Source of the DNA: Coleofasciculus sp. B1-GNL1-01
GTDB lineage: Bacteria; Cyanobacteriota; Cyanobacteriia; Cyanobacteriales; Coleofasciculaceae
Direction: 5' to 3' (one strand)
DNA: 64,000 nucleotides
Assembly (NCBI GenBank): GCA_040220235.1
Contig: JAVJTO010000004.1
The notes beneath the pieces were generated by a model. It was not told the origin of the DNA, made no database searches, and saw only the letters and a list, made by a program, of their open reading frames with translations. This document shows positions 8,701 through 12,004 of the stretch, in pieces; position 1 is the stretch's first letter; every line of letters begins with the position of its first letter. Both the position numbers and the translations under genes were made by a program.

Positions 8701-9684
<984 letters not shown>

Positions 9685-9803
9685 TATCCTTCTGTTGTTA
9701 ATCGTGTTTGTCGATTCGGGTAATCGATTTGAAAACACAGGGATGTCAACAATGACGTTTTACTGACGGGACTGGCCGGATTCGAACCGGCGACCTAGCG
9801 CTT

Positions 9804-10671
9804 CAGATTGGTGTGAGTTTCCTCACTCTCTGGACTATCCCTTCACCTTGGGCGTATCGCCTTTAGGTGGTAGCCGTTCTGTTTAAGGACGTTTGTACTT
9901 TATAGAGCATACTGTCGTGGATGTAAGGGCGAATGAACGCTAAAAAGCGTTTTCCTTCCTTCGTTCCCATTCGCAGACGATAAAGTCCTTTGGCTTTACT
10001 CAGCCCCCACTTAAATCCCCAAACCTCGGCAAAATAAGCAACAATGATCTCATTTTGTTCTTTAGAGAGATAAGTATTCAGCTTAAGCGTTAAAGCGTGA
10101 ACCTTTCCGTCTTTTTTGGGGAAGGACTTAGACCCATCATCCATAAACCAAATTGCTATTCCCTGGGGGGTTAAGAAATTCAGGAACGTTCGCGTGATTG
10201 TTTGGGTTCCAGCTTGATAAAGCCTCTTAACTAAGACCCGTGTCAGGGGAATCAACTTTGGTTCTAGGCGAATTTGGTCATAGCCCTTTTTTGTACTCCA
10301 GCGTCGGAGACTGACTGGTTTACCAGTTATCTGTTCGAGAAGCTTTTTCTTAAATAAGAGATACTCCTCATACTTCGATGAATTCTGGATAAAGAAATTG
10401 TTTTGATTTCTTTTTCCATCACCTAATAACAGTCCAGCCAGAATACCGCGTTGCTCTACTTTCGATGAGACATTATAGTCCATCTTTTATTGGTGTCCTT
10501 AAACCAGTCTCTGCACCTTCCGATTCGTTTTTAGAGTGGAGTTTTGCCAGATTGACTTAAACTCAAACAAATCGGCTTGGCTCAAGATTACCGTATCTGG
10601 GATCAGATTTAGGCTTCCTTGAATTTGACTACATTCACTCGTCAGGTTTCCCTGGCGGTGCCCGATTTTTC
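9804..10671 (-). mobile_element. Group I self-splicing intron (IC3-like), 868 nt, between tRNA positions 36/37
   Basis: Exon ends in U, intron ends in G; P1 CCU|GA-AAAA-UC-GGG with U.G at the splice site; P2 with GAAA loop; P AAATTCAAGGAA; Q AATCTTGAGCCAAG; R GGTGCAGAGACT; S GAAGGGATAGTCC; P3 GTAGTC/GGCTAC; P8 CACCT/AGGTG; P9 GTGAG-GAAA-CTCAC. Confidence 0.94.
9863..10483 (-). CDS. Intron-encoded two-motif LAGLIDADG homing endonuclease (I-SceI-like, LAGLIDADG_2 type)
   Basis: Motif 1 ILAGLLLGDG, motif 2 LTPQGIAIWFMDDG, C-terminal IRPYIHDSMLYK; basic 206-aa protein inside the intron. Confidence 0.92.
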   Translation of the reverse strand: MDYNVSSKVEQRGILAGLLLGDGKRNQNNFFIQNSSKYEEYLLFKKKLLEQITGKPVSLRRWSTKKGYDQIRLEPKLIPLTRVLVKRLYQAGTQTITRTFLNFLTPQGIAIWFMDDGSKSFPKKDGKVHALTLKLNTYLSKEQNEIIVAYFAEVWGFKWGLSKAKGLYRLRMGTKEGKRFLAFIRPYIHDSMLYKVQTSLNRTATT

Positions 10672-10722
10672 AGGAGGCGCTTGCTCTATCCATCTGAGCC
10701 ACAGCCCCATTTCAACTCAACT

Positions 10723-10751
10723 ATTATACCCAATCCTTTCTCTCTAGTCAT
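10723..10751 (-). promoter_or_regulatory. Probable tRNA promoter (ATGACT-N17-TATAAT)
   Basis: Perfect TATAAT on the minus strand 14 nt upstream of the tRNA 5' end. Confidence 0.6.
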
Positions 10752-10754
10752 TTG

Positions 10755-10820
10755 GTCGGGGCGGGTTTTGCAGCTAAGCTAGGGATAACAATCAATATTA
10801 GTCCCTAAACCCGCCCCTAC
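10755..10820. repeat. 66-bp REP doublet (REPIN-like)
   Basis: GGGGCGGGTTT...AAACCCGCCCC arms; near-identical inverted copy at 56036-56101. Confidence 0.85.
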
Positions 10821-10894
10821 ACACAGACATGCCATAGCACATCTCCCCCATCTCCCAGACGTGCCATGGCACGTCTCTACATGCTCCCCAGCTA

Positions 10895-12004
<1,110 letters not shown>

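Follow-up and report, generated by a model that had tools for sequence, protein, structure and literature searches.

In a 64,000-nt stretch of Coleofasciculus sp. B1-GNL1-01 (contig JAVJTO010000004.1 of assembly GCA_040220235.1; the whole stretch is called the window below), a tRNA-Arg(CCU) gene on the minus strand is split by an 868-nt group I intron, and the intron carries an open reading frame (ORF) for a LAGLIDADG protein of 206 amino acids (aa). Based on our analysis, we propose that this is a functional group I-split tRNA gene, that the intron-encoded protein belongs to a maturase-like family, and that the window copy is a bifunctional endonuclease and maturase; we consider this the likely reading of the locus. 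A further-reaching proposal, which we put forward tentatively, is that the family may be the first bacterial tRNA-intron maturase family: an I-SceI-type protein would have entered a peripheral arm of the ribozyme, its frame would have fused with the ribozyme core (P3' and P8), and it would have become a long-inherited cofactor in filamentous cyanobacteria, the nuclease surviving in a few lineages such as the Coleofasciculus-like ones, where the protein would be bifunctional. A first-pass annotation of the window had described the locus as an unusual mobile intron. Its anatomy stands, but it was too narrow on function, in view of the maturase-like pattern of the family, and mistaken on rarity.

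Read directly on the minus strand, the two exons (37 + 37 nt) join into a regular 74-nt cloverleaf with the anticodon CCU, and the intron lies directly after anticodon base 36. ARAGORN in intron mode placed a tRNA-Arg(cct) gene at c[9765,10709], its anticodon loop interrupted by 868 nt of intron, and the halves and insert given by the first-pass annotation agree with the direct reading to the nucleotide. Default ARAGORN found no tRNA gene in the whole 64-kb window, and Rfam at gathering scores gave no match in the whole window; these blanks reflect blindness to the split architecture and are not evidence against an intron-split tRNA. The earlier warning that standard pipelines could overlook the tRNA and present the ORF as free-standing was therefore apt: both default searches were blank, and databases label the protein as a free-standing “DNA endonuclease.” PMC8450103 likewise supports the view that standard pipelines overlook such tRNAs.

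The split gene appears to have no substitute of its own kind in this genome. In the 8.66-Mb assembly (172 contigs), default ARAGORN reported 53 tRNAs, including Arg-acg, Arg-ccg, and two Arg-tct, but no Arg-cct; therefore, the split gene is the sole tRNA-Arg(CCU) gene found there. The locus is also the sole match to RF00028 and the sole match to PF03161 in the assembly, and the tRNA-Leu(taa) gene is uninterrupted. Whole-genome ARAGORN in intron mode additionally proposed 14 “intron-containing” tRNAs (on contigs C11, C24, C34, C35, C47, C63, C88, C100, C112, C151, and C172). We set these aside as probable false positives, arising for example from adjacent tRNAs bridged into one gene; none of them overlaps an RF00028 match.

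The insert has the hallmarks of a group I ribozyme. In E-value mode, the Rfam model RF00028 (Intron_gpI) matched at 43.4 bits (E 2.2e-9), so that the Infernal search proposed in the first-pass annotation is positive by E-value and negative by the 50-bit gathering cut-off. The alignment fits well in the 5' half of the ribozyme, from P1 to P7, and the score remains below the cut-off because the 3' half of the model is pushed into the ORF, across a 628-nt insert; four ORF-less orthologous introns score 54.5-60.5 bits, over the cut-off. We then aligned 83 distinct pre-tRNAs (57 ORF-bearing and 26 ORF-less) and defined the helices on the window sequence. Standard pairs make up 249/249 in P1 (three invariant pairs), 498/498 in P3, 573/581 in P4, 249/249 in P6, 467/494 in P6a, 579/579 in P7, 331/332 in P8, 288/332 in P8a, and 412/415 in P9, and the anticodon stem formed between the two exons keeps 414/415. 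Compensatory changes occur at two positions of P3, whose strands lie 750 nt apart in the window, on either side of the ORF, and at four positions of P4, and two-sided changes are found in all six pairs of P6a. In a control with the 3' partner shifted by one column, standard pairs fell to 2-55% (67% for the invariant P1). All 83 sequences have U at exon position -1, G at intron position +1, the terminal G, and the bulged A of P7, and all keep the U37.G46 pair of P1, as expected of a group I splice site; covariation from P3 to P8 and the P7 bulged A beside a G-C pair are likewise those of a group I core. A chance origin of the intron signals is excluded, and the group I assignment made from the U and G junctions, the P1 U.G pair, and the core is borne out. 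From its sequence, the intron is presumably self-splicing. Bacterial tRNA introns are assigned to subgroup IC3, and IC3 introns are not known to have an arm between P7 and P3'.

The ORF encodes an intact protein with two LAGLIDADG motifs, as the first-pass annotation had noted. A HMMER search against PF03161 (LAGLIDADG_2), which that annotation had suggested, covered the whole profile (1-168 of 168; E 2.1e-36; 125.9 bits against a cut-off of 25), and no NCBIfam family matches the window protein. The catalytic residues D22 and D116 are both present, each closing a LAGLIDADG helix. The closest matches by phmmer among PDB sequences are I-WcaI and I-SceI (E ~1e-5; 21-23% identity). An AlphaFold2 model built with 35 homologues has a predicted local distance difference test score (pLDDT) of 93.3 and a predicted template modeling score (pTM) of 0.90; only the tail residues 201-206, which are the ribozyme-derived end of the frame, are disordered. 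Foldseek placed I-WcaI and I-SceI first with template modeling (TM) scores of 0.76-0.77, and the bI3 maturase (1p8k) and I-AniI (2ab5) further down. The predicted structure is thus a monomeric two-domain alpha-beta-beta-alpha-beta-beta-alpha fold.

The position of the ORF ties the protein closely to the ribozyme. In the alignment, the P7 5' strand and P3' are separated by a linker of 2-4 nt in the shortest introns, a hairpin of 35-66 nt in others, and an ORF-bearing insert of 626-662 nt in the rest (628 nt in the window intron); an optional, P7.1-like peripheral arm therefore houses the ORF in its loop. The first seven pairs of the arm's basal stem (10504-10495 with 9890-9881) are well kept, and two-sided changes occur in 6 of its 10 pairs. 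The frame runs on through the 3' strand of the arm, P3', and the 5' strand of P8, and its stop codon UAA lies in the internal loop of P8 (9865-9863), so that the last ~11 codons and the stop are ribozyme core sequence. At the position of the stop triplet, UAA is found in 41 of the 57 ORF-bearing introns and also in 20 of the 26 ORF-less ones; the stop of the ORF is therefore ribozyme sequence. Synonymous variability is ~0.65-0.8 in the body of the ORF, 0.27-0.35 in codons 1-12, and 0.23-0.38 in codons 189-206. Cofolding of the ORF ends predicted an 8-bp helix between 10459-10452 and 9909-9902, each pair of which is standard in 44-55 of the 57 ORF-bearing introns (77-96%); on visual inspection, the tRNA-Leu version at locus L095, described below, does not keep it. 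The ends of the ORF are thus probably paired with each other, as judged mostly from conservation with little covariation, and this pairing would probably join the ribozyme halves and make the start codon and the AAGGA run inaccessible.

The same arrangement recurs in many cyanobacteria. The trnR-CCU survey that the first-pass annotation had called for was made in 401 genomes of the same phylum, with exon 1 plus the ribozyme 5' half as the DNA query, and an intron was counted as present when the match spanned exon and intron. A homologous intron was found in 51 genomes, 6 with the ORF (the window genome included) and 45 with an ORF-less intron of 204-319 nt. The 30 best loci are all tRNA-Arg(cct) genes with the intron at the identical position, and all 5 close ORF orthologues of this sample sit in tRNA-Arg(cct) at the same site. 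Matches to exon 1 only were obtained in at least 28 of the 401 genomes; all 20 that were fetched are intronless tRNA-Arg(cct) genes, in agreement with the earlier premise that intronless alleles exist. Since ORF-bearing, ORF-less, and intronless forms are all found, all three allele states of a homing cycle exist. The distribution is patchy, as homing would predict, but the ORF tree groups by host family (see below).

A protein search gave 177 clusters at E <=1e-10, the best being Coleofasciculus chthonoplastes PCC 7420 with 98% identity and others coming from Symploca, Lyngbya, Oscillatoria, Laspinema, Phormidium, Desmonostoc, and Spirulina; where the databases name these relatives at all, the names are “LAGLIDADG/DNA endonuclease” or “hypothetical protein.” We examined 59 close-family loci (L050-L108; >=52% identity) in species-representative genomes. 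Of these, 55 have the ORF in an identically placed tRNA-Arg(cct) intron, 3 are cut by contig ends, and 1, from a Pyrinomonadaceae metagenome-assembled genome (MAG), lies in a tRNA-Leu(taa) intron. The ribozyme and nuclease pairing is therefore no one-off, contrary to what the first-pass annotation had implied in calling it unusual. Every one of the eight Coleofasciculus-clade genomes carries the same intron, at 866-868 nt.

A sister lineage of the ORF is found in tRNA-Leu(taa) group I introns at L095:1315-2323 (921 nt) and L150:871-1817 (859 nt). L095 is the Pyrinomonadaceae (Acidobacteriota) MAG, and its protein is 61% identical to that of the window; L150 is a metagenome contig whose protein is 77% identical to the Pyrinomonadaceae protein P0101. 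On direct reading of L095, the ORF begins right after P7, the frame enters P3' and P8, and both catalytic Asp are present. From these sequences, at least one transfer of the ORF or the intron has evidently taken place across tRNA genes and phyla. A further relative (51% identity to P0101) lies at L151:480-1400 in a group I intron that scores 47.9 bits with RF00028; no tRNA is detectable there, the flanks resemble a protein-coding gene, and the ORF begins just past the P7 5' strand. Distant relatives of 22-33% identity (L109-L129 and L152-L175) come from MAGs of the candidate phyla radiation (CPR)/Patescibacteria, Chloroflexi, Hadarchaeota, and Gammaproteobacteria and from metagenome contigs, and lie outside tRNA genes. 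Two of these adjoin tRNA-Ile(gat), followed in L175 by tRNA-Ala(tgc), and probably belong to rRNA operons. Of additional note, at L132:1320-1470 (genome G092), an intronless tRNA-Arg(cct) follows a tandem duplicate of ~67 nt, consisting of the leader and the first ~52 nt, which spans the anticodon loop.

The catalytic aspartates kept by the window protein have been lost from much of the family, and the fate of the ORF after this loss carries our functional interpretation. Asp at position 8 of both motifs (D/D) is found in 40 of 121 cluster representatives and in 11 of 55 genomic orthologues, namely those of the window, 7 other Coleofasciculus genomes, Aerosakkonema, one Symploca, and Hassallia. 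The remaining 44 orthologues are without one or both catalytic Asp and have Q/R, W/K, V/K, A/K, K/K, and similar pairs. Nearly all of these are full-length frames, the exceptions being L068 (199 aa) and L106 (164 aa). ATA stands in place of the ATG start in 9 of the 55 orthologues (L063, L064, L066-L069, L083, L105, and L106); in these, the frame is open upstream into the ribozyme, and they would need a non-ATG or upstream start or be untranslated. Pairwise ratios of nonsynonymous to synonymous substitution rates (dN/dS) were computed on codons 3-194, which omits the RNA-constrained ends. The median is 0.13 in the Coleofasciculus D/D clade (28 pairs), 0.17 in the Q/R clade (45 pairs), 0.16 in the W/K clade (10 pairs), 0.26 in the x/C clade (3 pairs), 0.11 in the A,V/K clade (12 of 15 pairs usable, dS being partly saturated), and 0.18 in the D/R group with ATA start (6 pairs; range 0.12-0.33). 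The Asp-less clades are thus under purifying selection (dN/dS 0.11-0.26), the retention expected of a maturase, which here is a property of the relatives and not of the window's own protein.

Once its active site is gone, a purely selfish nuclease gene is expected to degenerate, yet this ORF does not; for this reason, we read the family as an intron-bound splicing helper. Maturase function is the best-known explanation for LAGLIDADG proteins that are conserved without an active site, with I-AniI and bI3 as precedents. The maximum-likelihood tree, built from 54 orthologues with the tRNA-Leu sequence as outgroup (L104, which has no start motif, and the truncated L106 were omitted), clusters by host family and contains a 30-row clade with neither Asp. 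It requires at least four changes of the D/D state, three of them forced by well-supported branches. Taken together, these sequence patterns fit a maturase-like intron protein that has long been kept and is mostly inherited vertically better than one that moves freely.

RNA data are compatible with expression of the locus. Six runs in a search of RNA libraries contain part of it, and we compared the contigs of four metatranscriptome runs, which have four study codes, are all from 2017, and possibly stem from a single campaign. The contigs span 9764-10784 with a word depth of ~180-440 and an identity of 95-99%; depth is zero over the neighboring 9600-9731, which is a hint only. These contigs are compatible with transcription of the unspliced precursor or with abundance of the excised intron; they say nothing further. 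One contig (run X15) joins 9803 to 10672 and omits exactly the 868 nt of the intron. Another joint, of 9849 to 10502, belongs to an ORF-less relative.

From these results, we suggest a likely scheme for the locus. The sole tRNA-Arg(CCU) gene would be transcribed as a precursor of ~940 nt containing the 868-nt ribozyme. The ribozyme would fold around its P1-P9 core and excise itself by two guanosine-initiated transesterifications, leaving the 74-nt tRNA. Because the frame passes through the 3' strand of the arm, P3', and P8, translation and ribozyme folding would compete for one RNA. The D/D protein of the window is most likely still a site-specific endonuclease, and an active homing endonuclease is plausible from its sequence; it would cleave tRNA-Arg(CCU) genes that lack the intron, close to the anticodon-loop junction, and thereby seed gene conversion, that is, homing. 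Since across the family it is inherited mostly with its host and is kept by purifying selection even in clades without the two Asp, the lasting role of the protein would probably be to bind its own intron RNA and aid folding and splicing, as a maturase. The window's D/D copy is thus probably bifunctional.

Whether the protein is a nuclease, a splicing cofactor, or both is what separates this scheme from its main competitors. One of these, in line with the first-pass annotation, is a purely selfish mobile intron, in which the protein is a homing endonuclease only, splicing is unaided, and the intron persists by repeated invasion. Mobility as such finds backing in the two Asp kept by the window protein and in the coexistence of intronless, ORF-less, and ORF-bearing alleles in the phylum, and the sister lineage in Acidobacteriota tRNA-Leu(UAA) introns and the copies that look decayed (L068, L106, and the nine with ATA) also fit a selfish element. 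The 44 of 55 Asp-deficient orthologues, nearly all full-length and evolving at low dN/dS, and an ORF tree that tracks host families argue the other way, and we consider a purely selfish element improbable. At the opposite end, the element could be domesticated and immobile: the window protein would no longer cut despite D22 and D116, would serve as a splicing cofactor only, and would be passed on by vertical descent. The family-wide loss of Asp, the selection, and the tree pattern would suit this, as would the intron of near-constant length shared by all eight Coleofasciculus-clade genomes, which vertical descent predicts. Yet all eight keep both Asp, at dS values of up to 0.30, in a family whose sister lineages lost them repeatedly, and the predicted fold superposes on the active enzymes I-SceI and I-WcaI; we think this explanation, too, is rather unlikely. 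Finally, the insertion could have inactivated the tRNA gene and left a dead relic. tRNA-Arg(UCU) could in principle read AGG by wobble, and the genome has two tRNA-Arg(tct) genes that would do so in this case. Against a relic, the exons, splice-site nucleotides, and core helices are conserved with compensatory changes across the 83 sequences, the genome has no other tRNA-Arg(cct), and RNA-library contigs cover the locus; we regard it as very improbable.

Several points also weigh against the functional, bifunctional reading that we prefer. The RF00028 score of the window intron itself is under the family cut-off. Purifying selection in the Asp-less clades shows that the protein matters, and what is selected may be DNA binding or another role. 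The retention of D/D in the Coleofasciculus clade could be recent history and not selection for cleavage. Some orthologous introns have neither ORF nor arm, a linker of 2-4 nt standing there instead, and therefore the ribozyme core needs no protein in principle. The host-tracking ORF tree, as far as sequences can tell, speaks against frequent recent homing between lineages. The exon-exon contig has a depth of 2.6, extends only 26 letters on one side, and is of metagenomic source; it may be the intronless allele of another cyanobacterium. Contigs, moreover, cannot reveal RNA ends or levels, and this includes the contig ends at 10709 and 9764-9766.

The features of the locus are listed in the table.

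Table. Features of the split tRNA-Arg(CCU) locus (window positions)
Feature	Position	Strand	Details
tRNA-Arg(CCU) 5' exon	10672..10708	-	Acceptor 5' strand, D arm, anticodon stem 5' strand, loop through CCU; exon end is the U of the 5' splice site; from ARAGORN intron mode and sequence
Group I intron, 868 nt	9804..10671	-	G+1 at 10671, terminal G at 9804
Ribozyme 5' half	10505..10674	-	P1 (exon CCU with intron GGG, U.G pair included), P2 with GAAA loop, P3 5' strand, P4, P5/P5a, P6/P6a, P7 5' strand with bulged A
Basal stem of arm, 5' strand (P7.1-like)	10495..10504	-	Pairs with 9881-9890; holds AAGGA Shine-Dalgarno-like run
ORF, 206 aa + TAA (621 nt)	9863..10483	-	Monomeric double-motif LAGLIDADG protein, I-SceI family
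Predicted long-range helix, 5' strand	10452..10459	-	Codons 9-11; partner 9902-9909
LAGLIDADG motif 1, aa 15-23	10415..10441	-	Catalytic Asp22 at 10418-10420
LAGLIDADG motif 2, aa 109-117	10133..10159	-	Catalytic Asp116 at 10136-10138
Predicted long-range helix, 3' strand	9902..9909	-	Codons 192-194
Basal stem of arm, 3' strand	9881..9890	-	Also codes for protein residues ~198-201
Ribozyme 3' half	9804..9875	-	P3' 9870-9875; P8/P8a 9844-9869; P7 3' strand 9830-9837; P9 with GAAA loop 9813-9826; terminal G 9804
tRNA-Arg(CCU) 3' exon	9767..9803	-	Loop AA, anticodon stem 3' strand, variable loop, T arm, acceptor 3' strand, discriminator G; without encoded CCA; from ARAGORN and sequence
Promoter-like site	10723..10751	-	ATGACT, 17 nt, TATAAT; ~15 nt upstream of tRNA 5' end

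The promoter-like site has 10 of 12 matches, but the search found 2 sites against 1.4 expected in shuffled sequence, and the signal is weak. In the upstream flank, window positions 10744-10900 hold two short dispersed palindromic-hairpin repeats, each with ~180-190 copies in the genome, over which the depth of the RNA-library contigs is 5,000-48,000. Rfam matches resembling miRNAs at 10819-10882 are chance matches due to the dispersed palindromic repeat and were discarded.

Our results have consequences for annotation, evolution, and possible use. Standard annotation silently leaves many filamentous cyanobacteria without a tRNA-Arg(CCU) isoacceptor, and the intron protein is recorded as if it were free-standing. 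One orthologous site offers intronless, ORF-less, D/D ORF, and Asp-less but selected ORF states, an allele series that amounts to a natural test of the change from homing endonuclease to maturase, in culturable bacteria rather than in organelles. Coding sequence that doubles as P3' and P8, combined with ORF ends that are probably base-paired, would make a compact case of translation versus ribozyme folding. The D/D members are candidate I-SceI-family meganucleases whose natural target would be the highly conserved anticodon stem-loop DNA of tRNA-Arg(CCU).

A full-text literature search, whose coverage left out most subscription journals so that a prior description is possible, found no LAGLIDADG gene in a tRNA-Arg(CCU) intron. 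We found no paper on this host site and insertion arm for the pairing of a group I intron with a LAGLIDADG protein, and both appear undescribed. A 2007 compilation lists I-Ssp6803I, a PD-(D/E)XK enzyme, as the only tRNA-intron endonuclease (PMC1995217), a 2011 study gives a homing endonuclease gene within an intein as the sole one known in M. chthonoplastes (PMC3229294), and a 2017 article states that tRNA introns of cyanobacteria had previously been known from tRNA-Leu and tRNA-fMet alone (PMC5733544). The background assumed in the first-pass annotation, that bacterial tRNA introns are mostly small and ORF-less and that I-Ssp6803I is of the PD-(D/E)xK type, fits both that compilation and our survey, in which 45 of 51 introns are ORF-less.

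Compared with the ORF-less tRNA-Arg(CCU) introns, the window intron has the same host gene, insertion after base 36, and ribozyme core, and differs in the arm between P7 and P3', which the protein gene has enlarged to 628 nt. Reinhold-Hurek and Shub reportedly described in 1992 the self-splicing of the tRNA-Arg(CCU) group I intron of Agrobacterium tumefaciens. The tRNA-fMet intron of Synechocystis sp. PCC 6803 is likewise a cyanobacterial anticodon-loop group I intron with an endonuclease gene, according to PMC1995217; its enzyme, I-Ssp6803I, is a PD-(D/E)XK protein of 150 aa in another tRNA, whereas the window protein is a 206-aa member of LAGLIDADG_2. I-SceI and I-WcaI share with the window protein the PF03161 domain, the monomeric double-motif fold (predicted here), and an acidic residue at position 8 of both motifs. 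They reside in fungal mitochondrial large-subunit rRNA introns, whereas the window host is a bacterial tRNA gene, with DNA of the anticodon stem-loop as the presumed target. The 23S rRNA introns of Synechococcus sp. C9 and Thermotoga also combine a bacterial group I intron with a LAGLIDADG ORF, as PMC1995217 records, but in an rRNA host gene and with another protein lineage; a LAGLIDADG protein of Thermotoga neapolitana is reported to be maturase-like (PMC3984707). In CPR and archaeal MAGs, relatives of ~25-33% identity lie outside tRNA genes. A parallel in evolutionary pattern is offered by I-AniI, which is bifunctional, and the bI3 maturase, which has no nuclease activity, as LAGLIDADG intron proteins kept after the loss of catalytic residues. 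These are fungal mitochondrial proteins of another LAGLIDADG subfamily whose maturase function was shown at the bench, whereas the maturase-like character of the window family is suggested by the way its sequences have evolved.

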